Shown here piece after piece: positions 954 to 26,184 of a stretch of 38,117 bases of DNA; positions within the stretch are counted from its first letter, which is position 1, and each line of letters begins with the position of its first letter. The notes beneath the pieces were generated by a model. That model ran no database searches. It was given only the letters and a program-made list of their open reading frames with translations, and was not told the DNA's origin. Source of the stretch: Perkinsus olseni. Lineage: Eukaryota. The translations under genes were made by a program, and so were the position numbers. The stretch covers positions 1 through 38,117 of the forward strand of contig JABANN010000334.1 in assembly GCA_013115125.1 (NCBI GenBank), written 5' to 3'.

Positions 954-1371
954 TTTCGCTATTTGTTCTTCAAGCCGAAACGTACGCGCCCGCCATCTCA
1001 ACTTCGGGCCTACGGCGCAATATTCAAAACCCGGACTTGACCGATAACTATTCGTTTGGCATCTCCAAAGCAGCGTGGCGGCGGCTGTGATACTGAAAGT
1101 AAGAGGGCCTACAAATTTGGATCTCAGGCGGCGCGCTTACTCGCGTCTTCCAAGCTTCTCACCGCGGTGCTATCGTCGAGCGCTCCAGGCCTTGAAAATC
1201 TGTGTCGCGATTGCATTCTTGGATTTTTTGAGCAAAACGGAGGGAATGAGGAGATATTACATACGATTTTCTGTGTTGATGAGATTAACGCGGCGACGCG
1301 GATTGGATGGCTTCGTCACTGTGAGCATCTTGCCGTGATGATCTTGCTTCATAGCGGTTCCGCTTCTGATA

Positions 1372-2424
1372 ATGGCGATCCTCGGCTACACTCTGAAGGA
1401 GGTCTTTATCATAGCTGCATGCTTTGGTGCAAGCGTCTCCATGATGAACTCTGTCAAATATATACAAACAAGTCTCAACTACCCCTATCCCATGTTCATC
1501 AGTGCCATGCACATGCTGTGGTCTTTCGGAGCTTGTGGCCTGTATCTGAGATGCGACCTGGGTACCTTGCAGCGTTACTCCCTATCGCAGTACCTGCATA
1601 AAATCGTCCCGATCGCCCTTTTCTCCAGCGCGAGCATTGCGTGCGGCAACCTTGCTTTGAAATATATTTTTCCGTCTTTTAATGAGTTGCTGCAGCAAAC
1701 TAGCGCTGCTGTGACGGTTGTGGTAGGTGTCTTTATTTTTGGTAAGAGATATAATCTTGCTACGTATTTCTCCATGTTACCCGTTTGCGGTGGAGCTATT
1801 CTATGTGGTCACGGCGAGGTTAACTTTGTCCTCCTCGGAGCTCTCTTTGCAATCGGTAGTGTCTTCTTCAGAGCGTTGAAGAACACGATGCAAGGGGATC
1901 TTCTCAATGAATCTCTGTCGTCTCTTGAACTGTTGTTTGTCCTCGCTCCGGCCAATCTGTTATTTTTCCTTGTCGGCTCCGTCGTCACGGAGGGTCTCAA
2001 TCCCATTTGGGAAGCTGCTCCCAGTCCCCGAATAATGCTAGCCTTGGTTGTGTCATCTCTCTTGGCATGTGCTTTTAATCTGCTTACTTTCAAGATGCTG
2101 AAATTGCTGTCACCGGTTGGTGCTATGGTAGTGCATTCTCTGAAAACTCCTGGTATGCTAGTCACGTCTTGGGCTCTCTTCGGTAACCCGGTGAAGCAAT
2201 CCCAAATATTAGGCTTTGTCATCATCACTGCGGGCGTCTACTACTACAGGACTAATGGTGCAGAGCTCGCGTCTGGTCCCGAGTTGCCGAGGAATGTTGG
2301 TGATGACGAAAAACTCGATGACGGGTCATTGGATGATGGGCAAGAGACCTATGAGGGTGATGATTCTAGTGGTTGTACCGATCTGGAGATGGGAGAACTA
2401 CGTTCCGATGCTGGTCTCGAATGA
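1372..2424 (+). CDS. Nucleotide-sugar / triose-phosphate transporter family (DMT superfamily) membrane protein, intronless
   Basis: 350-aa ORF with many hydrophobic segments and family-like motifs: MNSVKYI..NYPYPMFISAMH, IACGNLALKYIFPSF, GEVNFVLLG, FRALKNTMQ, FNLLTF..LSPV..VVHSLK, LFGNPV..QILGF. Acidic C-terminal tail. Confidence 0.9.
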   Translation: MAILGYTLKEVFIIAACFGASVSMMNSVKYIQTSLNYPYPMFISAMHMLWSFGACGLYLRCDLGTLQRYSLSQYLHKIVPIALFSSASIACGNLALKYIFPSFNELLQQTSAAVTVVVGVFIFGKRYNLATYFSMLPVCGGAILCGHGEVNFVLLGALFAIGSVFFRALKNTMQGDLLNESLSSLELLFVLAPANLLFFLVGSVVTEGLNPIWEAAPSPRIMLALVVSSLLACAFNLLTFKMLKLLSPVGAMVVHSLKTPGMLVTSWALFGNPVKQSQILGFVIITAGVYYYRTNGAELASGPELPRNVGDDEKLDDGSLDDGQETYEGDDSSGCTDLEMGELRSDAGLE

Positions 2425-2779: not shown

Positions 2780-5700
2780 ATGAGTTCTCAGAGCATCCGT
2801 GTTCGGCTGCCGCAAGTTTTCAGACCAGCGAAGCCTTGGTGTGCTTTGGCCCCGCGCTTCGAGGCGTTCGTGCGCGAGCTCGGTGTGCCGAAGAGAGAGG
2901 ACGCAGTTCGTCTCATAGTTGGAGAAAGATATTTCAGTTCAGCGCCACATGCTGTGGGGGTCGCGGCGACCAGCGGCACTGTCTATCTCGGCATGGGCAT
3001 AGCCGAGGTGAGCCGCTTTTTAGGAGACGCGGTACTCACTGTCCTTTGGTGGGTGCTCAGGTGGGGCTGGGACCCTTGGGGAGCCTCATAGCAAATTTAA
3101 TGAACCATGGTGAGATAGGACTGAGTGAGTACTGCTATGGCATTGAGAACCGGGACGTTGCTCTCGACGAAACTGACCGCGCGCTGCTTTATGCGCTTGG
3201 TAAGTTGCCTAGACGTATCTCTTTGGGAGAGGATACGCAGCTCGAATTCGCAAGTGAGTGCTCCCGAGGGAGAATCTTGCTTCATGAAAGCTGGAAGCGC
3301 ACGGCGTACGATTCTCAGGCGAGAATGACAGGGCATCTACTCCAAGGGGACGCGACCGATTGTTGAAGCACTACATAGGGAAGGGAGCGGATGTGTTCGA
3401 TGTTATCTGCAAGAGACTTATAGATCATGCTTATGTACCTTGGGACGGCTCACACTCACCGCCGCAGTAGTTGCCGCCGAGTCAGGTCTCTAGCCAACTG
3501 GCATATAACGACGGAGGTGGGTGCGCGCTAAGGTTGAGTACTGGTGAGATTGTCCGAGCTCCAGGGATCGTTGTGAAAGGTGAGTTCAATGTTCCTGCTT
3601 TGCGCGAAAGCTTTCTCGTCGCTCCGCGAATTTTGACCCTCCATGGCACATTCCACCCCACGATAATGGTGGAAGACTACGGCAGTTCCCTGAGGCTTCT
3701 TTCTCAGGTCCTGATGCCCTCACAATCTCATCTACGCAAGCGGCCGCAGTAGCGCTTCGTGCCAACGGTTTTGTGGCGAATGATGATGAACTCCACGCGG
3801 CTGACATAACGGAAGCAGCTGTGTGTATCGGGGGGAACGAACTGGCCGGACAGGCTGCAGTGGACCTTGTCCGATCTATCTGGCCACGAGTCAGTCTCAG
3901 CGTTGTGAAGGCAGTCGACTGTGCACCGTTAGAACCTCAACCACGAGCATGACGGTTTCCGATGAGCATGCTTGCTGTTGGGTTCCCCTTCCTGTGGCAA
4001 GAGCTGAAACTCATCCATGAGCTGGCGACTGAAAATCTATTTGGAATGGGTATCGTCTTTATCGCGAATGCGTTGGTATAGTTGTTGCTCTAATTTGTCA
4101 CTCGTTATGTATCCTGGTAAGCAGCAGCGTCACGGGACGCCGCCACGGACGAGCCCACGTGAGATGGCTGAATTGGAGGACCAGATCGTGGCCAGGCTCA
4201 AAGGCCACGTGGACTATCGTCTAGAGGTAATCATGCGAGGATAATGAGCTCGCGGTACGGACACCCGGGAAATTATTCTGAACTGGTCGACAACAAGGTC
4301 GCAGAAATGAGGCTCATTTTTAGAACATGTATAGTCCCTGTCTCAGGGTTTGAAGGCGTTCATAGCTGACGAGATTGCGGCGGCGAAGACTGAGATGCTG
4401 GAGACCTTGGAACAGAGCCAGGCCCAGCGTCAGTCTCCCCGGCCGGCGGCATATGGAGGGTTGGACGACTATGCACTACCGAAACGGTCTGACGAGCGAA
4501 GACCTCGTGTAGGACCATAATGCTGCTCGGATCGGTCCCGTGTCTCTGACGCTTGCTGTGGTGTTTCCCTGCAGATCCCCTCGCGACCGACGCGAGCTCC
4601 GGAAGTTCGAGCTCCCTATGGAAGAGGGCAAGTGGATCGCCTCGAGGACGAAACCGGAATTAGGGCACTGGCAATTGATTTGCCTAGGAAGCCTAAAGAG
4701 CGCCCGCGGGCCCCTCTTTCCGATGATGACGGTCCTCAGAGGGTAGCCGCGCCCGTAGCGGTTCCACGGCAGGATATATCCGGTAGGGAGGTTTCAGTTC
4801 TATCTTCGAGCTGATTACCTGTGGCAGCGCAAACTTCGATGCCGCTGATCAATGTTGACCCCGAGAGGCAGCCGAATGGGGACTTGGCCGTGAGCGCGAG
4901 ACCAGCGGCAGAAGTGAGAGACACCAACGAAGGTAATACCAGTCCCGGTACTGACGCCCTAATGAAGCGCACGGTTCCCTGTCACCCTCAATTGCGTTCC
5001 CATTGTGCTTTCACCTCTCGTTTAATATCCTATGCTGTATCTCCTCCTCATGAGAGTCAATCGACGATTGACAATCGCCCCAGAGTAGTCGACGCGTAGA
5101 CAACGTCCCAGTCACGAGACATCGAGTATTAAGCCGTCAATGCTATTGGTTTATGGACAATACCAGGTTCGCGTAATTGTTTCCATTCGAATTTCTTTGT
5201 AAGGCAGCTCAGGCGACGAGGATAAATTCTTGTCAGGTCACCCGCAACCTCCAGAGCAAACCGTGCGAGCTGCTGCGACCATCAATAACAATTTAGTGAA
5301 GCATGAGGATGTCCGAAGAGCCCGACGGGTTAAAAGCGGCTCTACCGAGCGGAGCTCTGGATCGAATCGTAGCCCGGGCGTTCCTGAGGTAAGCCCTATA
5401 CCTCTGGGAGTCCGAACTTGGAATGTCACGTGGACTGGGTTTGATGGCTTTTCTTCACAACACAAGATAGTGGCTGACTTGATGAGTGGGCTTCCTTGCG
5501 GGCAATTACGTCATTTTCAGGTTGTGCGTTACATGCGTGTTACTAACGACTTTGTCGCTGAGGACGTGATCGAGTTGTCCATTAAGGCCGGCGATCGAGT
5601 GAGGGTGAGACCCTTCCCTTTAGAGTGTCATCTGTTAGGCCTATCTCACTTGTGTTGGTATTGCGGAGTTTGAACTATCACGTATCTCAGGTGAATGAGA

Positions 5701-5783
5701 GCCGTCCGGATTGGACCAACGTCACCGCAATGGACGAAACCAGTGGATGGGTGCCGACCTCCCACCTCGAACCCGATGACTGA
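2780..5783 (+). CDS. Multi-exon gene (possibly two genes) ending in an SH3 domain, with a coiled-coil and Pro/Arg-rich middle
   Basis: The last two exons join across intron 5605-5690 (GTGAGA...TCTCAG) to give VVRYMRVTNDFVAEDVIELSIKAGDRVR|VNESRPDWTNVTAMDETSGWVPTSHLEPDD*, matching the SH3 pattern DF.A....ELS...GD...W...G..P. Upstream exons (MSSQSIRVRLP..., EMAELEDQIVARLK, FIADEIAAAKTEMLETLE) are GT-AG bounded, but continuity was not fully traced. Confidence 0.65.
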
Positions 5784-6219
5784 CCTCTTGTGCTACATTC
5801 TCGTCCGTGTCGAGAATAGATCGCCCGGTGTACCGGTAGTGGATAATGAATACAATTACAGTGCTATTATGGGAATAGCAGTAGATGAATTGCTAAATCG
5901 AGAGAGTTTGTGTTTCAACATGTCTTTTGTCTAATGTGCGGCGTTATGTTGTAAGAGAATACTCGGGATACTAGGGAGTGGTGGCATACTATTGTGACTT
6001 CCTGAAGTCCGTCGAGAGGCGTTGCTGAGTAAACTACGTCCAGCGCATCTTCCGAAGATACCCTATGGTACCATTATAGGGTCCTAGTACGCTCGCTACC
6101 ACTATGGAGATGTGGATGGGATCGGTCACACCTTCAGTCGCCCATCCTTCGGATAGTGCTGACGGTTTAAGACTGGAATGGCTGCACTCGAGAATCATTT
6201 GCAGTTCTCTGCTGTTTCA

Positions 6220-9200
6220 ATGCCACTGCGGCCCTCTCCTGCGAGCTGCCAAATAAAGGTGAGTGCGTATGTCATTGCCGACGGGTCTTTTCTTCAGTCG
6301 AATAGTTCATTCCACACTGTGAACATAGAACACAGGGACTCGTGGAATTTCATTAACGGTTTGCCGTTAGATCCATTGTGAATCCTGAAAGTCTCGAACT
6401 CGATGCTGCATGCTTGAAATAAACACGCTCTATGAGAGAGAATCTAGATGAGGCAGCTATATCCGCCTTGCACTGGAAATTGTGTATCAAAATCGGCAGA
6501 TTGTGCAACATCGTTATGTCTCATATCCTACCCTCGTAAATGTCAGGTGGCAGTTCGAATTCGCCCGCCGGCATTGAAGGAGGAGGACGCTGGCGAGCTC
6601 AGTGTCGTGAAGCTGGTTGACAACACGTCTTTGAAGACGGTCGATGTGCACGGCAGGGCCTCGATGTGGGAAGCAGACTTTGTGTTTGACGACTCCGAGA
6701 ATCTGCTGGCGAAGAGTGAGCCTCATTGCCTGTTGTATCGATGGTGATATTATTCTCGTCCAGATGGCCATGACGTGAGGCAGCAGTATGTGTTCGACCA
6801 CATCGCTCTACCACTAGTCAAAGCTGTTGTGGATGGGTATCCAGCATGCCTGCTCGCGTGAGTCCTGCCGATGCTAGATGCCTCCGAACCCTCACTCATC
6901 GCTGTGCAGGTACGGGCAGACAGGGTCGGGGAAAACGTACACGATGTTGGGTGCTGGCGTTATTGAATCGGGTCCAAGGGTGGATAACCCCGGCATTATA
7001 CCGCGAGCAGCATCAGGTGGTGCAGGCGCTTGTCTCACAAGGACTCCGTAGTCTATGAACGCCCGAGAGAAATTACCGGTTTCGCAGCTGATTGGTGGTC
7101 GCTAGCTGCCGTTGGAATGAAATGATGACGTTGGTCGATATTTCTGTTCTCAGAGCTGTTCCCGCTATTGCAGTCCGGCCGAGCAACGCGTTTCGAAGTT
7201 TATTTCTCCTATCTCGAAATTTTCCACGACCACCTGGAGGACTTACTGGCGCCTCGTCCGGAGGAGCAAGGGGAGAAACGTGGAAAGCGTTTAATGGACG
7301 TCCATATGCACCCCACGATAGGAGTTTACGTCGCTGGGCTCACGCTCAAGGCGATCGAGTCCGCCGGGGAAGTGTGCACGGTCTCCCGGATGGCAAGCCT
7401 CTTACAGCAGTGCTTCTAGGTCACTGAGCTGTTACGGTATGGGATGCAGACGCGGGCGCTGGCATGCAGATCTTTGAGCGATCGTTCTTCTGTTACTCAT
7501 ACGATCGCTACCCTGCATGTTGTGCAGTATTTGGAATCAGACGGAAACGGCGGGGAGAAAGGTACGGGGAAGTGCTGACCATTTTGTGCGTTAATCTCGT
7601 AGCTTCAGGCGTGGTGATGAACTCGAAGCTGCAGCTGGTTGACCTTGCCGGTAGTGAGCGGATGCGTCCCGCTGCGGCTTCATGGGGAAGACACAAGCGA
7701 AAGGTGAGGCCTCGTTTTCACCTGAAGTGGCCGGAAGATACCGGAGCAGGGTGTGATGGTTAACAAAGGCCTCCATCAACTCGCGCTGTGCATTACGAGG
7801 CTGGCAGCGAAGGCAGATCATATCGCTCATGGCCACGACAGTGAAGCAGAGAAGGTCCATGTGCCGTACAGAGACTCGAAGCTCACATTAATGCTCCGAG
7901 AGGCTCTAGGAGGAAATGCTCGTAAGCACGACTGCGCCGACACTCAACGGTTCCGTATCCGCTCCACCCCACTGGCGAGTGGCCTTCCTGACGGAGAACG
8001 ATTTCCTCTTAGGTACAGCAATGATCGCTTGCGTCGCGCCCTCTATGAGTTGCCTTGCTGATAGTTTATCGACTCTAAAGCTGGTAGAACGAGCGAGGTC
8101 CGTAAATACTAAGCCGAATGTGTCTCTACGGATCTGTGACTCAGTGGATCATGTCGCCGAGGTAGGTCATGTTTCCTGCGAGCCGTTTTAAGGCTACATG
8201 ATTGCGGCAGGTGAACGAACTCGAGGACAAGATCTCACGAACTAGGTTGGAGATGAAAAAAGCTTCAACACGTGGAGGTAGTGGCTGGCTCACGATGGGC
8301 TGTTATCTTTTTTACCTGCTCCCGAGTTGGGTCGTAGCAGCACGTCGCTGCTGGAGAGCAGTCCTGCTCGTCACTTGTCTCGGAGGCATGACCTTCTCCC
8401 GTGTGTTCAAAATTCTGAGCTGACGATGCTGAAGGGACTAGAATGGACTGAAATCATTCCGCATCTTCACTTTACCTTTCTCTCGATTGTTTCGCTTCAC
8501 ACGCATGTGGACCCTGTGCCCTGTCTTGTCAGACTTGACCGAGCAGGAGCTGCTGAGTGAGGAACTTGAGAACACGGAATCTATGTAATGTCACCAGCTA
8601 GTGGTGTACGATCAAAGCTCCTCCGTTTCTCAGGCTTCGCCTGCTCGGTGGGTCGCTGCATGGCGGCATGCGGGACGAGCTACGGGCTTCTGCCAAGAGG
8701 TGATGCAGGATACTATAGGGCATCTCTCTCTATGCCCTCGTTTGCTACTCATCCATTTACTGTTCATTCATGGGACATCACTTGAGGGCTACGGAGATCG
8801 CTTGTGGTTGTATCGAAACTGTCAGAGTGTCGTTCTGTTCCCTCGAGACCTCGGTGGTTTCGATGCATTCAGTTTCTTTGTTGCTGCTCAGTTCCTTCCC
8901 TACGTCGTCGTGTAGAGTATCCTCGAGCCGCAGTGGTCCTCTTCCGACGCTCGTGTAGGCTATCAGTGGTGCGCCACGGGAGAGTCGCCACGTCGTTGTT
9001 TCAGAAATCTATCCCGGGATCCGGCTGTATCTGGCCTTTTGTCGTAAGCCATCGCGACGTTAGTCTGCTCAAGCAATTGGGCTACGCTCAGATATGAACT
9101 CGATCCTTCGGTAGCAGCCACAGTGGGTAGCTCGACCACCGACTCCATAAAGCTTCATGACGAAGCATTGAGCGTGAATCCCAGTATGTGCCAACTTGTT

Positions 9201-11480
9201 GGTGGCGAACAAGCGGGCACAATGCTCCTCAAGGTTAACAATGGTGAGCCAGCTGGACTGTTGTTTCATCTAGGAAGCATTAAGTCAGTTGTATTCGCTC
9301 GGTCGTTGCCTCAGCTCTGGAGCATCGGGTTTTCGTAAACGGCAGTCAAGTCGTTGACGAAACTGTCGTTCGCGATGGAGACCGTCTGAGGTTCGGCCAC
9401 TCTGTGCGCTTTCGCGTGGCCATTCCCGAGCGAGAGGAAATTGTCGCGAAGGGAGCAGATACCCTGCGCCTTCGCAACCATGTTCACGTGAGAGACCGCG
9501 GTGCGTTGTCCGTATCGATGCTCGGCGTCCTACTTCAGCATGAGCTCGAGAAAGAACATACCGAAGCTTCGTGTGAAGAATCACCCGAGTACGACGAGGC
9601 GGTGCAGTTCGCAGACGAGTTGGCCGAGAGGATCGGAGATGCTCGCGCGCAGGAGTTTCTGCAGAACTTTTCGCGTGAATTGCCTTTGGTCGCTGAAGCT
9701 AATGCTCTGACGTAATGTCCTCACTCGCACCGACATATGCGAAGCAGCGCCTCTCTATTTTAGTTCGGCACTTCGGCCACATCATCGCATACGGTTCTCG
9801 TTAGAGGTCGTCGTGGATGTGCTGACATATGGATCGGTTGTTCCCGAGATAGTTGTACTAAGATTTGGGATCCTGGTACATCCGTAACTCCTCGTCGTGG
9901 ATGAAGAACTGTCTTGCCGAGTTTACGCACGACTGACGGTGGCTCGACTTAGGTTCGAGTGTGGGCCCCGCTGGACAACGCCGAGCGTTGGGCGAACACT
10001 CAAGGAGAGTTCCGTACTACAGGTAGTTCGGATGGCTTCGGACTGTTAGTGGATCTGACTTGAAGCATTCGGAGGAGCGGGTGCGGGAAGCGTTTTGACT
10101 TGCTAGTCACTGGAAGGTACCGGGAAGTGGGACATTGCTCGACGGTCCCTGAAAACAGCTCGGGTGGGATCTGCGTTCGGATTGGACACCAACATGGGTG
10201 GTAACCATCTGGAGCATCCTATAGAGGTCTGTGAGGTAGACCACGGGAGATCGTAATCGACCCGGACCGGGCACGCCTCCGAAATTTCATCGTCAGTTTG
10301 GCCGAGTGGTCTAAGGCGCCAGACTCAAGTTCTGGTGGAGAAATCCGCGTGGGTTCGAACCCCACAGCTGACATTTTCGTCTTTTGCTATACACCTCAGC
10401 TGTCGATCTTCCGCCAGAAGTTAGAAGTCCTCAGAGAGCTGTATGATCGGAAAACGAGCGGAAGTCCCGACAGTATCCCGGACTTGTCGGATCTGGAAAA
10501 CAACGTCTGGGAGGCTATCACATGCTACGACGTAAGCTCAACTGAATTTAATTTTCTTTCATCTTCCGAGAGACTTACCGCCATGAGCGTAGGTGCGAGG
10601 AGTCCTCACCAACGCAAGCATCGAGCTCGAAGACGAGCGCGCCGAGAGCCAGCGGCGAGGAGAAGAAATACGGTGTCTCCGCGAGCAAATCACCGACATG
10701 GAAGCTGACGTGGCGCAGGCTCGAGAACTGCGTGAAACTATTGTACGTGGCTTGAATCGATGAGCTGATTTCGAGCAAGAAGATTCAGTGTGCTGACACG
10801 ATTCAATCCGTTCTCACTCAGCGATCCAACGAAATGACCATTGCGGAACTCACGGCCAAGGCGGCGAAGCAGGATCGGACGGAGCGGGCTCTGCAAATGG
10901 CTGAGTTGGAACTGCAGAATACGAGGTCCGGACAACTGACGTGCACGTGCTGTTGCTCCAGAGGCGATTGTTGTTTCCATGACAGGAATGAACTAGAGAA
11001 AACCAGGACTCGTCTCGCTGGGAGCGATCCCGGAGGCTGTGGTGAGCGACCTCACTCAGACGATGCCATCCGCAGTTTGGAGATGCGCCTCGATATCAGT
11101 GGTAGGACTCGGATGATAGGGTTCTCACAACAGCAATGCGATTGCATGTGACTGGAGCTGAGGCACTCAGCGTTCCTGTGTGATCAGCATCCGAGCGGAA
11201 CACGGCTATTAGATTTGCCAAAGACCTCCAAAGGGAGCTCACGGAGATGGCCGTTGCCCTGGGACAAGATCAGAAGCGCGTCGAGCGTATTAGAGGTCGC
11301 CTTACCGATCGTTGTGGTAGCTGAAGGTCCTATACATGCTTTGTCGTGCCTCTTTGTTGTTTTCTCTCGTGATTGAGTGCAGTGGGCTTCAATTTGCAAC
11401 CTTGGAACAGGCGGAAGTGAACCCTGTCGGGAGGCCCTTCGCACAGAGCTGATTGAGAGGTTGCTTGCGCTGTGGATGGT
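6220..11480 (+). CDS. Kinesin-3-like protein: motor domain, FHA-like region, KIF1B-like segment, coiled coils. 3' end approximate
   Basis: Spliced translation gives CQIK|VAVRIRP, YGQTGSGKTYTM (P-loop, about 6911), FEVYFSYLEIF, KLQLVDLAGSER, VPYRDSKLTLMLREALGGNA and TAMIACVAPS. Kinesin-3-like tail motifs: PTLVNLSRDPAVSGLLSYEL (about 8940-9100), LPLVAEANAL (about 9680), LSIFRQKLEVLRELY (10400). Confidence 0.88.
10292..10373 (+). tRNA. tRNA-Leu(CAA), copy 1, in a kinesin intron (sense)
   Basis: GTCAGTT/AGCTGAC acceptor stem, A-box TGGCCGAGTGG, anticodon arm CCAGA-CTCAAGT-TCTGG (CAA at 10326-10328), long variable arm, B-box GGTTCGAACC, discriminator A. Confidence 0.97.
10374..10377 (+). terminator. 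Pol III oligo-T terminator of tRNA-Leu copy 1
   Basis: TTTT directly follows the discriminator base, with a second TTTT at 10382-10385. Confidence 0.7.
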
Positions 11481-11586: not shown

Positions 11587-12914
11587 GAGGGGGCTGACTT
11601 CGTCGGACCATCGTGGTTACGGAATATGGACGCAGGTGCGCGAGGCTATCACATCACCGAAAGGGACATAGACCAAATACGATGCTCCCTCCCCTTGTGT
11701 TTGGGTTACTGACGTGATACCGTTCCCACAAGGTGCGTAGTGTTGAAATGTCTCAGTAACACTTATTCCCTCGGGTACATTTGAGCCCGTAATACTCGCA
11801 CGGCCTCACACCACGCTGAGTCACCATGATCAGAGGCTTTCCATGCGCAACTCGTACTGCACAATTTTACTCTGTCCTCGGGCGATCCTAGAATAGACGT
11901 TATGTTGTTTCTCAGGTATTCGCAATGCTGGACTCGGACACAAACGGGGTCATATCTTTGTCCGAGGTACACTTACGCTAGTGCTAAGCTGCCGCCTTGA
12001 GGTTCCGTATTCCTCCTCTAGTGAGTAGCATCTTGGCGAGCTATGCTGCTCTAGCAGTCCTCGATTTTTGTGTAGCACATTGGTCTATCGTTGATTGGTC
12101 GGACTGTTAGGCTGATGCTGTCTCGTAGACTCGAGAACTACTGCAATTAAGCAAGCAGGTGAGAGAGATGATCCGAATGATTGGCTTGGATGAGGACGAC
12201 CCGAATGTCCGAGATTTCCTCAATGATGTTGACGACATAGGCGACATAGATCGTGCTGCGTATGGAGCCCTCATGAATAGAAGAGTGTCTTTGCAGGGAC
12301 TCGGTATCCCTTCCAGAAATGACTTGGTAAGGTTCGAAAATCCTTCTGTGGGCGACTTCATTCTGGGCGTGAGATCTGGTGCGACAGGCTCTCTGCCACT
12401 GCCAGCTCCAACTCTATGCAAGACCGCGCGAGCACGTTGTGTGCCACGGTCTTCGCCGCTTCTCAGTTGAGATGTTTTCGCGTTCTGCGCGGCGAAGGGC
12501 GGCATGAACCAGACCGTTTTATAGGCAGTAAGGGTCTGCGCAGAAAGGAATCTTTTGTGGTTTGGAGGATTGAATTTCAGAGAGCAAGATTGAAAAATGC
12601 CTTCGAGAGCATTATGGGTCTGATGGACCAGCTCCCACGGAGAATATAACAATGGTGCGATCCCCTTGGCGCCCTGTCTTCATTTGGTCCAGCTAAGCTG
12701 GCAATTAACTAGGCGGTATGTCGCGGTGCTCTGAAGTTGTCTGAAGTAGATTCTCGACAGTCTCCCGTTCGTGAAGCAGGCTGATGGGGAAGAAACGTTG
12801 GATTTTGAGGCGTAGGGCTCCGTGGAGGGCAAGGGCGTGTGGCACATGCCATGTGTACCCAGAGAGCCATCACTGCCGGCCCTTAGGTACACGATGAGCG
12901 TATCAGTAGAGTGA
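11587..12914 (+). CDS. Calmodulin-like EF-hand exons, either the kinesin C-terminus or a separate gene. Boundaries approximate
   Basis: Exon 11916-11966 encodes VFAMLDSDTNGVISLSE, a canonical 12-residue loop (D-x-D-x-N-G-x-I-S-x-x-E). It is preceded by YHITERDIDQIR and followed by degenerate hands (VRDFLNDVDDIGDIDRAA; KQADGEETLDFEA). Confidence 0.55.
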
Positions 12915-13127
12915 TAGGGTCTTGCCTCGTGCCGCGATGCTTCATTGCACGCAATTTCACGCCCTGGGCCGACAAAATCCATGATTGATGGCTGTTGTTG
13001 ACTAAGGACCTCAGAATTGGCTCACATGCACACAGTGATTGGTGGATCCGAGACGAAGCTACTTAGGTATTCGCTGTTGTGTTCGGTTGATTCGTTCATG
13101 TTTTTGGACTAAGCTTTCACCCTCTGT

Positions 13128-15104
13128 ATGGCCATGCAGCAGCACTTCCCTAGGTTGAAGATGGCGACGGGCCAGGCGATGGGATCTCTCACCTACAGAG
13201 TGGCAAATGCTCCGACTGTGGACAACCTATTATTTCACCTGAACAATGAGCCGATGGACCGGCTGCTGATGCCTAAAGTTCTCAACGCTGCCCTTGGTCG
13301 CGTTGCCAAGCTCGCGACGATTCCGCACCGCGGCGAGAACGGGAGCATCGTTTTTGACAAGGTTTTGAGCATCATTCTGAAAGGCCTGAAGTGTCGCGAC
13401 TGGGACAACAGGAACTTGGCGGGCGCATTCTGGGCAGTGGCCAAGTTTCACAGCGAGACCACGGAGACGCCGCTGCCCCCTGGTCGAGTTATCGAGTTGT
13501 TCGAGGCGATGACTCCCTACGTGAAGCATGAAACATGCTCCGCGGTGGACGTCTCTAATATACTGTGGGCGCTGGGTACCTTCAAGCTTGCTATGCGCCA
13601 CGACTTCCGTTACTCATCGTCAGTCGAGGAGCTGGCAGCCTCCTTGTGTGTCGGGTGGTGTAACGTACTGAGCTCGACTGAGCCTAGCACTCGAGCGGTC
13701 GGTACCACCGCGTGGGGCGCTATCACGGTGTTAGCTGACCACCGTGGCGCCGAGAGCCTCAAGCTCATGAAGGCCACCCTTAGCCATGCAATACTCAGAT
13801 TGCAGGCCTTCAAACCTCCGGAGATCGCCATGCTGCTCCATATGATCGTCCGTTGCAGAGATTCTCAGAACTTGCCAGAAGTTCGGCCCTTCATCGATGA
13901 GTGCTGCAGGACCATCGATCCTGGCCGCTGGGATGCTCGAGAAATCTCCGTCGCTTGCAGAAGTGCTTCCAAATTCGCCTACCCGCCTGCCAAGTTGGTG
14001 TGGAAATTCACTGAGTATCTTATCTCGAGCGATACATTGAGCAAGATGGTACCGACTCAATTCAGCATAACGGTGAATGGCATCCTCATGGGGCTCGCTT
14101 CCGCCACGTATGTGGGTGACCTCGGCAAGTTCGTGGAGAAGGTTCGGTCCTATCTTCGAGAAGCTGAAGGTCTGCCATTGAAGTTTGGAGGGTTGACCGA
14201 GGCTCAGGAAATCATGACCATCCACGCCATTTTGTATGGCGGTCAGTGTCGGCTAACAGAGCCGGAGTTGAAATTCGTGCGGGACTGTGCGAGTCGGTTG
14301 TTAGCGGGAACGGTTAAACTCGAACCGAACTCGTTCAATCGTCTCCTCTATGTCATTGCGAGCACCTCTTATGTGGAGGGTACCAAAGACATCGCGGTTG
14401 AGCTGTTTCGCTATGGTCAAGCTAGGAGCGGCGAGTTCGATGAAGTCTCCATCGCTGGTCTCTGTAGCTCGCTGGCGTTGTTCGCTGACCCGGTAGAGTT
14501 GACCACCTCCGAACGAGCGACGGTGAAGGATCTCATCTGGAACGCGCTCGAGATAGCGAAGACGTGGCGGAAGCCGGACCACGAGAGGGCCGGCACAGCG
14601 AAACTTATCAATTGGTTTCTACTCTCCGCCAAGTACGAGTGGCAGCTATCATTGTCATCGGGCTTGGAAGCACTGTTCGCTGAAACTGCGCAGCATTGTC
14701 AAGGACGGCATCTGGGAATTCAGTCTTCTGCCATCCAGAAGAGCGGTCATAAGGGTGTGAGAGAGGCCCTTGAGGGATGCTCGAAGGAACTGAAAGTCGT
14801 GGATGAGTGGCAGTGCCCCAAGACGGGATGGTATATTGATGCAGTTGTTGTGGGTCCTACAGGAGACCCGGAGGTTCTGGTTGAGTGTCAAGGCAGGGTA
14901 CACTCGAGAAGCCCTTACTTCCACGCGGATAAGTTGAGACTAAGAATCTTGAGGTCGATCTATGGGCAGAAGAGGGTTGTGGAAGTCGACGGTTCCGGAA
15001 TGGGACTCACAGATTTTGCAACTCGCTCGAAGGAGCAGGTGCGGAGTGCCCTCACACTCTTGGAATTGACGAGCGACAAGAGCGAATCTGTTTCCGACAT
15101 GTGA
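13128..15104 (+). CDS. Helical-repeat (OPR/HPR-like) protein with C-terminal RAP domain, intronless, probably organellar RNA-binding
   Basis: 658 aa. Repeats such as WDNRNLAGAFWAVAKF, SAVDVSNILWALGTF, FKPPEIAMLL, WDAREISVACRS. C-terminus GWYIDAVVV...VLVECQGRVH...DKLRLRILRSIYG..VVEV resembles a RAP domain. Confidence 0.75.
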   Translation: MAMQQHFPRLKMATGQAMGSLTYRVANAPTVDNLLFHLNNEPMDRLLMPKVLNAALGRVAKLATIPHRGENGSIVFDKVLSIILKGLKCRDWDNRNLAGAFWAVAKFHSETTETPLPPGRVIELFEAMTPYVKHETCSAVDVSNILWALGTFKLAMRHDFRYSSSVEELAASLCVGWCNVLSSTEPSTRAVGTTAWGAITVLADHRGAESLKLMKATLSHAILRLQAFKPPEIAMLLHMIVRCRDSQNLPEVRPFIDECCRTIDPGRWDAREISVACRSASKFAYPPAKLVWKFTEYLISSDTLSKMVPTQFSITVNGILMGLASATYVGDLGKFVEKVRSYLREAEGLPLKFGGLTEAQEIMTIHAILYGGQCRLTEPELKFVRDCASRLLAGTVKLEPNSFNRLLYVIASTSYVEGTKDIAVELFRYGQARSGEFDEVSIAGLCSSLALFADPVELTTSERATVKDLIWNALEIAKTWRKPDHERAGTAKLINWFLLSAKYEWQLSLSSGLEALFAETAQHCQGRHLGIQSSAIQKSGHKGVREALEGCSKELKVVDEWQCPKTGWYIDAVVVGPTGDPEVLVECQGRVHSRSPYFHADKLRLRILRSIYGQKRVVEVDGSGMGLTDFATRSKEQVRSALTLLELTSDKSESVSDM

Positions 15105-15234
15105 TAGTTCAAAGTGTTTCTGAATTCTGAGTTTCAGAGTTCTGTTACAGTTTGGGTGGTGGGGGCTTGCAGCTCAGCGTTTTTACGTAGAAGCGAAGGG
15201 ATTCAGCTTCGATACTTGATATCGGGTCTTTGCC

Positions 15235-17166
15235 ATGCCCGGCTTCCGACCCTCGAATCTGCGGCTGCAGCAGTTCTCGTTCGCTGCAAGGCTCCGTTGC
15301 TGCGACAACACTCGGAAAGTGCTCACTTTGGTAAATACGTTTCCTGATATGCTGACAGAGGCTAGAAACACGGAAGCCGTTATGCACAGAGTGGCTTCCT
15401 TTCCCCCTAGTAGAACTCTGCACGAGCTCTTCCAGAGAGTCACAACGGAGATCACCCGCGAGTCATTCCCAAGCGAAGCCCTTTGGGACAACTCCAGCTT
15501 AATGAGTATCCTTCGGTCCCTCGTGAACTTCCGAGTTCGAAGCCCTCTGCTATGCGATACGCAGGCCGCTGAAGACATGTTGGAGTTCCTAGCCCTACGG
15601 ATAGAGCCAGAAACCTGTGCACTCGATGAAGCCGCTTATGTAGTGTCGTCACTGGCGAGACTCAAGAACATCACTGTTGACTGTTATGCGTGCGTGGAGA
15701 TGGTATGCAAGTTTGTGGATGAAATAGTGTCTGGGCTGAAAAACGGAGATGCTCCTCCGATCACCGGACTGGCTACTTGTTTATGGGGCATCGTGGAACT
15801 CTTGGGAGCAACTCATCCTGAGAGGGTGCAGACGGCTGTCAATGGGGCGATTGAATTTCTGTCGGTGCACCACTTCCAGGAGCTGCGGGTCACGGACGTA
15901 CTCATGATCGTACGGGCGATTGGGCAGTGCGAGGGTATGCGGATAGAGCTGAAGAGTAAACAGGAATTTTGGAGTGCGCTTGCGATCGGCTTCCCTTTTA
16001 CCACCATCGACAGGAGTTCTATGAAGCTGCTCACTAAGGCCCTGCAGCAGGTCGACGATGTTCCTCCTAATGTGTGGGGAGGGCTCATATCGGCTTTAGC
16101 GGTTAGCAACAGAGTGCATGAGCTCAGCCCTCACGAACTGGCGACCTTCCTTCGAGCTATGGTAGAGCCCGTGCGGCACGATATGGCTGTCAACACGACG
16201 GCCCTGGCAGACTCAGTTTTCGAGTATATCGAGAAGGAGCCCAAGGGTCGCATTGGCCCAACCGACATGGTGGATATCTGTTGGGCCCTAAGCATCCGGT
16301 CACATTCTCTACCGGAGCCCATTCTGGGAGATATAGTATCCCTTGCTGCCGCCATAGCAGAGGGTCGTGGCAGCGTGCCGGATATGACGCTTGGGCGTCT
16401 CTCTGAGGTACTCGCGAGATCGACAGTCCGTCGAGGTCTGTACTCGCCTGCGGTTCTGGAATTTTTCGTGCATGCCATATCGAAGCGATCGTGGAAGTCA
16501 ACAGCTGCAATGAGGATGATGAGCGATGCGGTGGCGCATATCGCTGATGGCCGACTTCTCGGTTCTGAGCAAGCAAGAGATCTCCTCGCAAACCTAATGG
16601 CTTCTCACTGTGAACGAACGTTGAAGTCGTCAATGCTTATCAAGGCTCTCCTTTGCGCGGATGTGGAGCACAGTTTGGCCTGCCTGACCGAGAAACAGCG
16701 TGATGAACTCCGCCGAGCACGAGACCAAGCAGAAGGCGTCATTGCGGACATTCCAGGTTCCGAGCAGAGGGACTTGCTGGCCGCTGACCTTGCCAAAGAG
16801 ATCTGTCGTCGCGGATTGCCATTGCGAGTATCAACTTCTTGGAGGTGCCTTCGAAGTCTCTGCGTGGCCGACTTGACCTTGCTCGCGGCTGAAAGTGATG
16901 AACCCATACTCTTCGTGGATCTTAACTCCTCGCCCTTCGACTTATGTCACTACGAACGAGAGTTCCGATATAGACTCCTCTCAGCGGTATATGGGAGGGA
17001 GGCGTTTTTGAGATGCAGCGATCAAGACATGAGCCCATCTGCGTCCTCGACGGGGCGAGGTGCGGAGTTGATTCGTGGCGATGTAGCGCCAAGCCTGCAG
17101 GCTAACACCATTCCGACAAGCACTATTCTCGCAACAGCGCTAAAGCGCATCTCTGTTGTGGAATGA
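15235..17166 (+). CDS. Second helical-repeat protein with degenerate RAP-like C-terminus, intronless paralogue
   Basis: 643 aa. Repeats WDNSSLMSILRSL, ITGLATCLWGI, LSPHELATFLRAM, GPTDMVDICWAL. C-terminus VADLTL...ILFVDL...REFRYRLLSAVYG parallels the upstream gene. The N-terminus is Arg-rich and acid-poor, like a presequence. Confidence 0.68.
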   Translation: MPGFRPSNLRLQQFSFAARLRCCDNTRKVLTLVNTFPDMLTEARNTEAVMHRVASFPPSRTLHELFQRVTTEITRESFPSEALWDNSSLMSILRSLVNFRVRSPLLCDTQAAEDMLEFLALRIEPETCALDEAAYVVSSLARLKNITVDCYACVEMVCKFVDEIVSGLKNGDAPPITGLATCLWGIVELLGATHPERVQTAVNGAIEFLSVHHFQELRVTDVLMIVRAIGQCEGMRIELKSKQEFWSALAIGFPFTTIDRSSMKLLTKALQQVDDVPPNVWGGLISALAVSNRVHELSPHELATFLRAMVEPVRHDMAVNTTALADSVFEYIEKEPKGRIGPTDMVDICWALSIRSHSLPEPILGDIVSLAAAIAEGRGSVPDMTLGRLSEVLARSTVRRGLYSPAVLEFFVHAISKRSWKSTAAMRMMSDAVAHIADGRLLGSEQARDLLANLMASHCERTLKSSMLIKALLCADVEHSLACLTEKQRDELRRARDQAEGVIADIPGSEQRDLLAADLAKEICRRGLPLRVSTSWRCLRSLCVADLTLLAAESDEPILFVDLNSSPFDLCHYEREFRYRLLSAVYGREAFLRCSDQDMSPSASSTGRGAELIRGDVAPSLQANTIPTSTILATALKRISVVE

Positions 17167-17400: not shown

Positions 17401-19259
17401 ATGAACCCTATCTCGGTAGAGACTCACCCTACTCGGATGAGCGTCTGCGCTAACTTGTTGAACGCGCACGCTACTGCTGGCTTTTTGGGCGGGCTCTGTG
17501 AGTGCAGGGGAGGCGAGCTCACGCGCTAAACTATCGTATAGGCTTTTGCTAGAGGCAAAAGCACGCTGCTTCTACCCGAGCAGGAGCGCAAAACATTTAG
17601 CTTGAACTCTTCAGGCTCGACGGCCGTTTTTTACCCGCTGGATTTGCTGAGGGTCCATTTGCAAAGACACTATGATGCCTATCGTCGCCCTAGTGTACGG
17701 GAGCTGTTCATAGCAGTTGTTAGGGAGGAGGGCGTGAGACCAGCTCTGTACCGAGGCTTTGGTAAGGCAGTTAATTGAAGGGCGAGATGATTATGCTCTC
17801 CCCAGCTATACGGAAGTGTCTATTTCAGGCATAAGTGTGACGGGAGCATCGCTCGCTTGGGGACAGTACTTTTACGGGTATGCTCTGTGACAGAGCCTCT
17901 GTCGACATTCGGCTGAGATCTTGGCTTGAACTCAAGCTAGGCGTTTTAGATACACCGCTCTCAAATCAGCTAACGTCTTCAACCTACCCTCCGCTGCTAA
18001 TCACCTCCTCAGCGGCTTCGCAGCCGGTTGCATGGTGAGGGGACTGACCAGGGCCAGTTTCCTCTCCTCTGCTGGTCTACATCTCGTGCAATCGCCATAC
18101 CTGGGGGTCTTTCGACAAGGAGACCTGAGAATATCCTTGCTGCATCCCTAGTCTGCGTCGGCCTTTCTTCTTCCATGACAGAGCAGGTACAAATCGTACT
18201 CTGTCCTCTATGGGTGACAAAGCTGAATGTTCAACTTGCTGTGTATCCTGGCGGAGTCCGCGGCTGCCTTAAAGGACTTTATGGCGACAGAGGAGTTGGG
18301 GGTTTCTACAGAGGCATCGTGAGCAGGCTATTTCGCGCCCGAAAGTTTACCGTTCCTTCCCCTAAAGTTTCCTCGCCGTTGCTCTGCGGCGTTTTCCGGG
18401 GCATGCCAGCCGTTTTCTTTCCAGGCGCCAAGCATGTGGGGATCTGCTCAAGGAGGGATTCAGTTCATGATCTACGAGCCAGCGAAGTATGTTTCGCGGC
18501 ACGACTGAAAGGAGCGCTCGCTCAGTCGTGCCCGCTCATTTGGCTGACGCTCGGCAAGAAAGCCGATGCCTCTGGCATATCGTTGTTTTGGGACATTCAC
18601 ATCTCCTCGTTCCTAACGTAATCAGGTCCAGGCTCCAGGCGTATCGTGGTTGTGAGCAGCTCAGCCCTCCCGACATCGTCTTGGCAACAACCGTGGCCAA
18701 ATCCACCGCCATGGTGAGTTTCCATCGATCTATTGGCCATTGCCGGTCGTATGATGCTCCGGTAGGAATTCCGGTCCCAGAAATGCTAGTGGGTCCAACA
18801 CCGCTACCAGCGGTCCGCTAGAAAGACTTGATCTCTCAATTGGCGGCGCTGGAGTGTTGCTGCCTTCAGATTATCATCAGTCCTATAACTGTGTTGACGG
18901 TGAGAATGAGGGACGCTGGATTGCGAAGCCACAACTACGATGACCTGTGGACTGCAGTAAAGAGGTACGCGACCTTTGCTTTATCGATCAATCTTGCAAG
19001 CGCGATTCATGCCGATCATGGCAATATCGCGTGCTTTCGTTCTCAGTGTGGTGGCTAAAGATGGTCTAACGGGATTTTACAGGGGCATCTTCGTCTCTCT
19101 GGTGAGTTGGGAGCGCAGAGTGAGAAACCTCCTTTCTCTGTCTCAGAACAGTGACCTCTCCTGCAGGTACGTGTTATGCCGGCCCAGTGGTGCACATTCG
19201 TAACCTACGAGTACGTCAAAGATGCCTTGCTCGGGGCTCAAGCCGGTTGGGCTATTTAG
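17401..19259 (+). CDS. Mitochondrial carrier (SLC25), folate/FAD/NAD-carrier-like, multi-exon
   Basis: Spliced: AGFLGG..STAVFYPLDLLRVHLQ..EEGVRPALYRG; GASLAWGQYFYGY; HLLSGFAAG..LCPLWVTK..GFYRGI; GGIQFMIYE; GLTGFYRG..VRVMPAQWCTFVTYEYVK. The PLWVTK motif in repeat 2 is typical of the SLC25A32/Flx1/Ndt group. Confidence 0.9.
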
Positions 19260-22299: not shown

Positions 22300-24131
22300 G
22301 TAAAGACTATTTCGCGCCTATCTAAACCTCGTCAAATCCCTCCTGTGAAAACTATCTGTGAACACAATGTGTAGCGCACGTCGTGTAGAGCACAACAGCA
22401 ACACCAGGCACAACTGGGACTTCGGGCAGAATCCATGTTCAAGCTACTTGACTAATGAGACCAGCGGCGATTTTGAGTTTCTGAGCACACCGCCAGCGAG
22501 ACTGTTCGATAGTCTGACTCGATCATTGATCTATGTCGAGTCTAGTGATCATGCAATCGCAGTTTTACAACTCGATGAGTTCAACCCGATCCGGAGGGCG
22601 CCCTAGGACTAGCGAGATCTCGCTGGGTGATCTCTCCGGCGTACACTGACTAGCCGAGTCGTCACTGCCGAGCATGTTGGATATGAAACTCATAGGTGGT
22701 GGGGGCGAACTGCCACCAGACGATCTGACAAAGATGTTCGCAATCACTTCAGTCAAACACGATACCAAGAGAGCGATTCACACGAAATTTAGCGTCAGTT
22801 TGGCCGAGTGGTCTAAGGCGCCAGACTCAAGTTCTGGTGGAGAAATCCGCGTGGGTTCAAACCCCACAGCTGACATTCTACCAGAACTGGTAGAGTTGTT
22901 TCCTACTGACGCCCGGGTCTTACATAGATCGCGATGTTGAAGAGCTGGCTTCGAGTTCACTCTCGCTGGACTCGGACTCTGTATCCTCATTTTTGGTTCG
23001 TCTCTGAATTTCTTCTCGAAGTTCCGCAACTCGTTTGGTATACACGCTAACCTGCACGCACGGACATGTAACGGCGTGAATCATAAGAACAGAACGGCAG
23101 GGTTCGCTGAACAGGCCATTCCGGGATACTTCAGATGGATAGGGGAACCGTCGAGTCTTAGGAAGATCGTCTTCTACCATCCGTTCAGTTTTCTCGATCT
23201 GGACATCCCGCTTCTGTATCCGCTCACGGAGTTTCTCGTTTGATTCGACTGCGGATGCCAAAGCCTGTTCCACACGTGATATACTACTCAGCCGACTATA
23301 GAGGAGGTCTTGGCGCCGGCTCAGCTGAAACGATCCATTTGCACGCCTCTAGTAGAGGCGTATATCTCGTATCTTCTTTCAGAAGATAGACGGTGATACT
23401 TCCTCGTTCAATGCTTCCAGGTTGCCGGTGAGCTTTCTCGTGAGTTGCGTTTCCTCCTTCAGCCTGCCTTTCAGTAGGTTGCACTTGCGCAGTGTACAGC
23501 CACTCTGCTGCTCTTTGACCTAAAGCCAAGTCGGCCTTGGAAACATCACGGTGTTGTCTTGTTGGGGACAAGTCAGTTGTATTTCACCTCTAAGACCTTC
23601 AACATGTCCACCAAAACAGAAAACCGCGATCGGAATTCGGAAATACTCGATGGCAACATCGGAGGTTCCAGGAGGCGGAATAAATGATCAATGGACCCTG
23701 CGAATGGCCCATTGCTTGAACCTGAGTTCAGGCCGGCTCTCCAGTAAATGAACTGTGGACCCCCGAAAAGAAAATACCCTTGCGGCTCCGCAAGTGCTCT
23801 TCACTGGCATGCTGGGATACGCTGACTCGTTGACACGGCACAGCCGGGCCTGGGTGATATATTTGTATGAAGGTAGCACGCGGTGGGTGTTGCTCTCACC
23901 CGCAGCTCCGGTCGGTAAGCCTGTGCGCGACCAAGAGCTCTTCAACGCTCTGGCTCGACCCATACCTTCCCGAAAGTTCGAGGTCCGGGTGTTTCCCGCC
24001 TGACAGACACATGACCCTCTGTTCATAGTAGGAGGATTCAAAGATTTGATACAGAAACACATCGAGGGGACGCTCACCCGGGAAGACTCGATCCCAGAAG
24101 ACAAGACCTGTTCTCTGTCTTCCAGAATCAT
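22300..24131 (-). CDS. Multi-exon coiled-coil / Ser-rich protein of unknown function, host of tRNA copy 2. Ends approximate
   Basis: Minus-strand exons VEQALASAVESNEKLRERIQKRDVQIEKTE, VSVYTKRVAELREEIQRRTKNEDTESES and SSGGSSPPPPMS. The last two join in frame across intron 22923-22725. Confidence 0.6.
22794..22875 (+). tRNA. tRNA-Leu(CAA), copy 2, in an intron and antisense to its host gene
   Basis: Identical to copy 1 over 82 nt except the T-loop (GGTTCAAAC vs GGTTCGAAC), which still fits the GTTCRA B-box. Confidence 0.96.
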
Positions 24132-24240: not shown

Positions 24241-26184
24241 CTAGAGGTCGTCAATGTCACGGAAAAAGGCCTTCGTGTTCGCCTTCTTCGCGTTTACACT
24301 AGCGGTGTTCTTCTGTTTACCGACCTGCGCCGCTTTTCTTTTCAGTTTCTGCCGTTTTGCCCTCGTCATCTTCTTCAGCTCTTCCTCATCCTTAGACTCT
24401 ATGTCTGAGTCCTTCGTCTCGCCCGCAGCCATCTTGAGAGCATCTTGTACCCTCCAGAATTTTACGTGGTAATCCTGCCCGACAGTCGCCACAAGCCCCT
24501 CGTCTAGATCAGCATGCATACTCTCTATTTCCGCAGCCAACGGCTTTCCCGTAGAAGCGTCCGTGTGGCCGCCAAGAACTCCTCGTACTGCATTTGGGAA
24601 AACGCAGAAAACTCTGACGTATCCGTCTCCGCCTCCGCATACAACCGTAGAGTCATCGAGTGCAATCATGTTGTCCAGCGACGTGACATTCTGCATGTGC
24701 GTAATTCTGTCCCTCACATCGCCCCAGTAATCATAGTTCCAGATCCCCACGACGCCGTTCTGGTCGCCGGTGAGCAATTTCTTGCTATCCTTCACTAAGC
24801 ACATGGACAGAAGCTCATTCTCTTGATTGTCACTCATAGCCTTCAACTTCTGTTTGTTGTACCGAAGATCATAGCAACCAAGAGTTGCATCACCCGAGGT
24901 GGACAGCAGTGACTTTCCGTCATTCTCAACGAGTAACTGCGTGATGTAGTCCTCCTGGAGGTCCTCATCTGGGAACTTGACAACAGTACCTGGGGACGCA
25001 AGGCACGGATTTTCCACGCCAGCACTTTCATCCTATCGAATCAATGCTGCGTGAGTTAAATCCGACTCGAGCGTGCGAGAACTAAGCGGTCAATCCTAGG
25101 GTAATGCGCGTTGAGAGGATGCACAAGTCGCAATGAACCAGTGACTTTACGGGTTGGCGCAGACGTTGATTAGAGAGAATACGTAACCTCGAAGCATGAG
25201 AACATACCCCAGTAAGTTGCAGTCCCGTACTCGTTCAGGTGACAGTTTACGAGTCGAAAAACCGGATACGCTGAGAATTTGTGGAGGGAGGTACGTGACG
25301 TACCTCCGGCCCGCAGCAAATCTCAGCGGCCTTGTAACTTCAGTTCCGGGTATGCATGGAGAACGGTTGCCACAACGGACTTAATAGCAGCGCACTAGCC
25401 TCCACCCAAAGTACTACTTTTCTTCCCGTGTATTCGAGGGTCGAATGCTAAAATTTGACCCTCATCGGATCCCGCCGCCACCAGTCCCGTGTCATTTATC
25501 ACTTCCATTGTGGAAACTCCTGCATTCATTTTACTGGAGAGCCACAGCTGTTTACCCGAGCGATCGTTTTGGGACACCCTGAGAGTTCAATTTGACAAGC
25601 ATGACCACCGCGAGTAGCGCATCCAATGAACTTGAGAGTAGATGAATGCAGAAACTACGTGTGAACATGCGCTAAGCCAAGCTTTCTGCACGGCCGAGCA
25701 ATAACAAAGTCGCAGCCACAATGGACCCTATGGGGGGTGGCTTACGTTCCATCAGCGGACCCAGACATCATCCAGTCCCCTTGCGTCGGCTGCCACCGCA
25801 CAACTCGGCAACTCTGTCGGTGTGTGTGGAAATGGCCAGCCTTTTCTACAACGCGCGATTCTTGATCGTACCTGGGAGAACCAAAACGACGCTACCGAAA
25901 GAGTTCCAGTAGCCGTGTACGAACACATTTCCGTGAGGACAACGATCCCCATTGAAATATGCGATTACGTGTCGTAACGATGCTTCACGACAAGAGCGTA
26001 CAACGACTACTGCCCCCCCCCGACGAGGCGAGCTGATGGGCGGCTAGAAACCTTACGTATGAAATATGACATCGCCTGATATCGTCGCTGACGCTAGCAG
26101 TTGCTCAGCTGGGTGGAATCGCACGTCAAAGGTGTGCTCTGGTAGGATTATGTCCGGCAGCGGTGGCAGCGAAGTCGGAGCCAT
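24241..26184 (-). CDS. WDR55: WD40-repeat protein, WDR55/JIP5-like, multi-exon
   Basis: First exon MAPTSLPPLPDIILPEHTFDVRFHPAEQLLASATISGDV; middle exon LVAAGSDEGQILAFDPR; last exon EDYITQL...LLSTSGDATLGCYDLR...SDNQENELLSMCLVKDSKKLLTGDQNGVVGIW...GGDGYVRV..VFPN...LGGH; terminal basic tail ending FFRDIDDL. Confidence 0.82.

Follow-up and report, generated by a model that had tools for sequence, protein, structure and literature searches.

The contig JABANN010000334.1 of Perkinsus olseni (GenBank assembly GCA_013115125.1), whose 38,117 nucleotides we analysed as one window, carries a single kinesin gene in which the motor domain has lost the arginine of switch I. The gene lies on the + strand, from ~6178 to at least 11321 and probably to 12812. 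Its exon at positions 7420-7561 (+) translates as ...CRSLSDRSSVTHTIATLHV, in which the codons AGC GAT CGT TCT TCT GTT ACT CAT (7477-7500) specify SDRSSVTH. The position of the Arg in the NxxSSRSH motif is thus occupied by Val, encoded by GTT at 7492-7494. The substitution is real and ancestral to three Perkinsus species. The gene is intact and conserved across the genus, and in our judgement the chances are about even that its kinesin-3-like product binds nucleotide and microtubules, turns over ATP slowly or not at all, and acts as an anchor or as a very slow motor.

Loss of the switch I arginine in Perkinsus

The locus was first singled out in a reading of the DNA letters (the original prediction), which reported the SDRSSVTH peptide and its GTT codon, and our codon-by-codon reading bore this out. 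The exon had been placed at 7420..7560; its start was correct, whereas its true end is at 7561, in a split codon. The acceptor of this exon is TAG followed by G, and its donor is G followed by GTACGG. The exon aligns to positions 177-219 of the Pfam Kinesin profile, and in a phmmer alignment with KIF14 the corresponding P. chesapeaki segment 'sdrssfth' is aligned to 'ndkssrsh'. The other motifs named in the original prediction were all recovered in the spliced product, namely intact GQTGSGKT, DLAGSER and VPYRDSKLT, together with VNKGL and STLKLV.

The SDRSSVTH peptide is identical in three P. olseni products. These are P0270, the model deposited for this contig, P0273, a 987-residue protein from a separate assembly of the same species, and the partial P0274, which differs from the product of the locus at two other motor residues. 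The orthologues of P. marinus (P0002) and P. chesapeaki (P0001) read SDRSSLTH and SDRSSFTH, respectively. In the stretch SLSDRSS_THTIATLHV, the seven residues before the variable site and the nine residues after it are identical in the three species. This shared loss within invariant flanks indicates that the Arg was lost before the three species split and that the site then moved among V, L and F. Conservation of SSV in the orthologues, a point raised in the original prediction, holds for the two Ser residues, whereas the Val itself varies.

The loss is rare among kinesins. We aligned 276 non-Perkinsus kinesins at the switch I motif; the Asn of NxxSSRSH is present in all 276 and the Arg in 275. 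The lone exception is P0134 with its cluster, a partial lamprey KIF4-like sequence that reads SSCSH and has DLAGSQR at switch II, so that both salt-bridge partners are changed there. A literature search on Perkinsus and kinesin gave no description of such a protein, and among the matches listed, no title named a kinesin.

We next compared the Perkinsus motors with 143 relatives having long alignments, using the 59 positions with a conservation of 90% or more among those relatives. Forty of the 59 positions are unchanged in all three Perkinsus proteins, including the P-loop, SS..H, DLAGSE, the Asn of INKSL and R..S.LT...L..GN. A further nine are altered in each Perkinsus sequence that covers them, namely F114L, Y174F, E176D, M242L, N243S, R248V/F/L, I306V, S309G and A384V in P0273 numbering, and five of these nine belong to switch I or to the junction between loop 11 and helix 4 (at that junction, model positions 278, 282 and 285 correspond to E302, I306 and S309 of P0273). 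Five flagged rows were left out as artefacts of the P0002 model, which has a 'Q' at the Glu position and gaps at positions 337-360.

Two additional changes are not shared by the whole genus. T240R is found in two of the three species; an Arg at this conserved Thr was considered as a general compensation for the lost switch I Arg and rejected, since P. chesapeaki retains the Thr. E302K is found in P. olseni only, where it is encoded by AAG at 7701-7703, the last codon of exon 7609-7703, before GVMVNKGL. This position is a Glu in 93% of the relatives and in P. chesapeaki.

The divergent Perkinsus proteins form a clade in two maximum-likelihood trees obtained by quick searches, with a support of 100 (a starred quick-tree value, of a kind less reliable on long branches). 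The stem of the clade measures 2.3 and 2.79 changes per site in the two trees, and its tips 0.07-0.24. Between species, the motor is 68-75% identical, versus 57-66% for the rest of the protein. With constraint judged from protein-level conservation, these figures are in keeping with an early burst of change and later constraint, rather than with decay.

Family assignment and relatives

The motor scores 263.9 bits against the Pfam Kinesin profile (PF00225; P0273, cut-off 29.3), lower than the 305-375 bits of its relatives. The best sequence matches in the PDB are KIF14 (1e-53), KIF4 (3.4e-52), KIF13B (1.9e-48) and KIF1A (2.2e-46). An AlphaFold2 (AF2) model of residues 1-431 has a predicted local distance difference test score (pLDDT) of 86.0 and a predicted template modelling score (pTM) of 0.86, with lower confidence around switch I and loop 11. 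Its best fold match is KIF14 (6wwl_K, 4.3e-36), followed by KIF13B, KIF1A and KLP-6, and Foldseek aligned it to many kinesin motors with a probability of 1.00 and target-normalised template modelling scores of 0.84-0.92. The protein is thus predicted to adopt a kinesin motor fold.

The predicted protein begins with the motor and a neck coil, continues with an FHA domain, a conserved helical region and a coiled coil, and probably ends in an EF-hand. The FHA domain is below threshold in Pfam searches (E 0.008-0.057). In contrast, when this Perkinsus region was compared by hhalign with an FHA profile built from the relatives, the probability was 99.2% (E 1.9e-19), versus 0.5-1.8% in cross controls. 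For several relatives having both Kinesin_assoc and FHA domains, a single phmmer alignment covers the motor and continues up to residue ~650. Kinesin_assoc matches are present in the relatives P0005, P0006, P0008 and P0040; in P0273, neither Kinesin_assoc (PF16183) nor KIF1B (PF12423) gave a match at E up to 0.1. A KIF1B domain was also considered for the region that follows the FHA domain (SPEY...VRVWAP) and was rejected, with hhalign giving 0.5% against the KIF1B-region profile.

Kinesin-3 motors are characterised by a lysine-rich K-loop in loop 12. The Perkinsus protein has no lysine-rich K-loop, as its loop 12 reads ADHIAHGHDSEAEK; the stretch from helix 4 to VHVPYRDSKLT is AAKADHIAHGHDSEAEK, likewise with no K-loop. 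The trees place the divergent clade beside alveolate kinesin-3-like sequences, with weak support (79 and 72) and the long stem (2.3-2.8). In the approximately unbiased (AU) test, grouping with kinesin-1/2/4/5/8, the families to which the alternatives were limited, was not rejected (p 0.174). The kinesin-3 assignment made in the original prediction therefore stood in part. It agrees with the architecture, including the FHA domain, and with the matches to KIF14, KIF13B and KIF1A; the motor tree does not support it firmly, and the K-loop is missing. We consider the protein to be kinesin-3-like by architecture, an assignment that is partly supported, the phylogeny of the motor not fixing the family. 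The Perkinsus protein thus resembles the kinesin-3 motors KIF14, KIF13B, KIF1A and KLP-6, as well as an alveolate group that includes Chromera velia Cvel_7471 (P0005), in having an N-terminal motor, a neck coil and an FHA domain. It differs from them by its SDRSS[VLF]TH switch I, the absence of a K-loop and of Kinesin_assoc or KIF1B matches, and a probable EF-hand at the end of its tail.

A canonical kinesin-3-like paralogue with GQTGSGKS, NAHSSRSH and DLAGSE motifs is encoded in the genus as well (P. olseni P0349, P. chesapeaki P0350). The two proteins are alike in genus and in kinesin-3-like architecture, the paralogue itself having a Kinesin_assoc domain. The paralogue differs by its NAHSSRSH motif, and it groups with dinoflagellate sequences (99, starred). 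That the divergent protein is a recent Perkinsus-specific duplicate of this paralogue was rejected by the AU test (p 0.0086, for a group named after the tree had been seen). P0350 is modelled as a 1489-residue fusion with a phosphodiesterase domain (PF00233), which may be a real fusion or the result of merged gene models.

Expected consequences for the motor and alternative explanations

In kinesins, the nucleotide pocket is closed for hydrolysis through the pairing of the switch I Arg with the switch II Glu; this Arg is regarded as absolutely conserved, and in human KIF5A its loss leads to disease (PMC5498027). The Kif5A variants R204Q and R204W are non-motile, and their microtubule-stimulated ATPase activities are 0.50 and ~0 per head per second, down from 6.77; E251K is likewise non-motile (PMC5498027). 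A second Glu, equivalent to E302, also contacts the switch I Arg in structures and simulations of KIF1A and Kif5A (PMC5498027, PMC2064809). The role that the original prediction had ascribed to the Arg agrees with these two sources. The E302K change of P. olseni is the same as the Kif5A disease mutation E251K.

On the Perkinsus stem, a hydrophobic residue (V, L or F) took the place of the switch I Arg, alongside substitutions at near-invariant positions nearby (N to S, M to L, I to V, S to G). We propose that, once the Arg-Glu salt bridge is missing, hydrolysis stimulated by microtubules would be slow or absent. The protein would then be a nucleotide-gated, long-dwelling microtubule binder, i.e. 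an anchor, a tether or a very slow motor, rather than a fast transporter. The original prediction, which had suggested poor hydrolysis and a role as a tether, scaffold or regulator, is plausible in this respect. The FHA domain and the probable EF-hand tail might serve as regulatory or cargo modules for regulated partners. As judged from its residues, the motor is otherwise constrained, with its nucleotide-binding and microtubule-binding elements kept.

Natural and engineered kinesins with similar defects provide points of comparison. Drosophila Costal2 (Cos2) and mammalian KIF7 are natural kinesins that bind microtubules without transport and are proposed to tether signalling complexes (PMC5881503). 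In Cos2, which is immotile, SSRSH is replaced by SPLAH (PMC5881503). Unlike the Perkinsus protein, both are kinesin-4 proteins, Cos2 also having deletions in loops 8, 9 and 11, and KIF7 having kept its motifs and not releasing ADP (PMC5881503). In comparison, the Perkinsus motor appears from its sequence to be changed only at the Arg and a few neighbours. Kif5A R204Q/W (PMC5498027) and Kar3 R598A (cited in PMC2064809) have lost the same salt-bridge residue. However, they are single changes in normal motors, whereas the Perkinsus loss is ancient, accompanied by neighbouring changes and apparently kept under selection. Trypanosoma brucei TbKIN-B, which lacks SSRSH, has degenerate motifs and a cellular role; it differs in lacking the P-loop Lys and in having only ~15% identity to other motors (PMC2396291). 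Vertebrate KIF26A is a kinesin-like protein with degenerate catalytic motifs and a cellular role that 'lacks motor activity' (PMC10585591). The Perkinsus protein, for its part, has retained both P-loop and switch II and has a strong kinesin score. Its motifs place it among the kinesins, already known as a class, whose switch I is degenerate; its particularity is that only the salt-bridge network appears altered and that the altered state is conserved across the genus.

Several observations weigh against a long-dwelling binder with little or no ATP turnover. The Kif5A R204 mutants have a weaker affinity for microtubules in AMPPNP (PMC5498027), and tight binding is thus not a given. KIF7 is immotile with its motifs intact, so that motif status and motility need not agree (PMC5881503). 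Unlike TbKIN-B, which lacks the P-loop Lys, the three Perkinsus species show no change in the P-loop, in the DLAGSE catalytic Glu or, within switch I, in the His and the two Ser residues, as expected if nucleotide chemistry were still selected. The neck-linker-like stretch and the neck coil are also kept, as in stepping dimers. Finally, the path between P. olseni and P. chesapeaki measures 0.35 for the divergent motor versus 0.19 for the canonical paralogue; the divergent motor has thus evolved only ~1.9 times faster between the same two species, which argues for strong constraint. Given the strict conservation of these residues, the protein may have a working but altered ATPase.

It is possible, if rather unlikely, that the protein is still a translocating motor, in which hydrolysis would go on without the salt bridge and the pocket would close differently, through the co-varying changes (N to S, M to L, S to T, I to V, S to G) of switch I and loop 11. 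The conservation of the P-loop, SSxxH, DLAGSER, VPYRDSKLT and the neck coil in three species is in line with such a motor, as are the clustered and shared rather than scattered nature of the changes and the higher conservation of the motor domain than of the tail. However, no species has a basic side chain at the site, the new Arg at the conserved Thr is found in only two of the three, and P. olseni additionally lacks the second Glu partner (E to K). Moreover, the R204Q and R204W substitutions abolish motility in Kif5A (PMC5498027).

We also envisaged a more far-reaching proposal, which we hold to be doubtful and in which the Perkinsus motor is viewed as a natural experiment. The protein would be either a kinesin that hydrolyses ATP and steps without the salt bridge, by means of a remodelled switch I and loop 11, or an ATP-binding, non-hydrolysing microtubule anchor placed under Ca2+ control by its EF-hand tail and specific to the perkinsid cytoskeleton. 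The former, if true, would call into question whether kinesins need this Arg for catalysis at all.

By analogy with the motor-homology partners of Kar3, and along the lines of the regulator role suggested in the original prediction, the protein might pair with the canonical kinesin-3-like paralogue and regulate it, contributing a head with little or no catalytic activity. We find this quite improbable: the paralogue is present in both P. olseni (P0349) and P. chesapeaki (P0350), but we found no link between the two proteins, and the sister relation was rejected in the AU test described above. A decaying pseudogene or an unexpressed relic is very improbable. The very long stem of the clade and the loss of a near-universal catalytic residue would be compatible with decay, but the 8 motor exons have canonical splice sites and join into an open frame, full-length orthologues are found in three species with the motor identity given above, the 40 conserved positions are untouched, and the branches within the clade are short. 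Lastly, a sequencing or assembly error, against which the original prediction had also argued, or an alternative exon with SSRSH has a negligible probability, as the three P. olseni products come from separate assemblies, the other species likewise lack the Arg, two base changes or more would be needed to turn GTT into an Arg codon, scanning all six frames of the window revealed no canonical switch I motif (SS[RK][STA]H or N..SS.[STA]H), and tblastn found no second copy of the switch I exon in the window, the next match having an E value of 0.069 and stop codons.

In this lineage, the Arg loss has become fixed and has been kept over the whole history of the genus, the site varying among V, L and F while the rest of the motor stayed constrained. 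The Perkinsus proteins would thus offer a natural background for finding which compensating changes, if any, permit kinesin function without the salt bridge. Alternatively, they might represent an example of a motor turned into a static microtubule binder.

Gene models and neighbouring genes

The locus consists of eukaryotic DNA with ~52% G+C and short introns. The features identified are listed in Table 1. The seven introns of the motor domain are 46-137 nucleotides long and all have GT-AG boundaries, and the reading frame is open throughout. The spliced motor is an exact substring of P0273. PF00225 matches six of the eight motor exon open reading frames (ORFs), in an order colinear with the profile.

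Table 1. Features of the kinesin locus and its surroundings in the 38,117-nucleotide window
Feature	Position	Strand	Basis or remark
Triose-phosphate-transporter family protein	1342-2421		
ORF upstream of the kinesin gene	5203-5783	+	Weak SH3-like match (SH3_2, E 0.028); outside the P0273 and P0001 models
Probable exon 1 (MAALENH...CQIK)	6178-6258	+	N-terminus of model P0273 and ORF; donor GT at 6259 inferred from the ORF
Kinesin motor domain, 8 exons	6547-8161	+	Splice signals and tblastn with two orthologues
Motor exons	6547-6715, 6764-6857, 6910-7016, 7154-7371, 7420-7561, 7609-7703, 7750-7921, 8013-8161	+	
P-loop GQTGSGKT, intact	6914-6937	+	Spliced product
Switch II DLAGSER, intact	7641-7661	+	Spliced product
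Loop 11/helix 4 junction, K then GVMVNKGL	7750-7780	+	Lys for Glu (P. olseni only), Val for Ile, Gly for Ser
FHA domain, two exons (~9093-9242, 9314-9430)	9093-9430	+	Coordinates by tblastn
tRNA-Leu(CAA)	10292-10373	+	ARAGORN; within kinesin-gene intron ~10239-10396, same strand
Probable additional 3' exons with EF-hand (VFAMLDSDTNGVISLSEV at 11904-11972)	11596-12812	+	tblastn of P0001 and P0149
Two adjacent stop-free ORFs (663 and 648 residues)	13113-15104, 15220-17166	+	No Pfam match at E 0.01
Mitochondrial carrier fragment	18001-18618		
WD40 protein	24244-25032	minus	

The available gene models differ from this structure in several respects. The model deposited for the contig, P0270, has MLGAGV as its start, so that the first three motor exons, and with them the P-loop, are missing. 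Both P0270 and P0273 end at ...RLTDRCGS (~11321), without the EF-hand exons, into which P0001 and the partial P0149 extend. The EF-hand_7 match in these 3' exons (E 9.3e-06, 26.4 bits) is below the cut-off of 30. The P. marinus model P0002 retains an in-frame intron equivalent to 7704-7749 (VGLRSSGRLGITQQ) and has unrelated residues in place of the last motor exon. Our analysis thus corrects the annotation of the deposited model, which is devoid of the P-loop exons, and that of the P. chesapeaki orthologue P0001, whose UniRef name 'kif21b' found no support in this analysis.

The tRNA gene nested in an intron of the kinesin gene is skipped by the P0273 model, whereas its equivalent is translated through in the P. 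chesapeaki model P0001 (SLAEWSKAPDSSSGGEIR). This indicates that the nesting of the tRNA is conserved and that the P0001 model is wrong at that point. A second tRNA-Leu(CAA) gene is found at 22794-22875 (+).

The neighbours of the kinesin gene are unrelated, ordinary genes. The 663- and 648-residue ORFs that follow it have a weak, colinear mutual similarity (BLASTP E 0.008 and 0.054), which suggests that they are a distant tandem pair.

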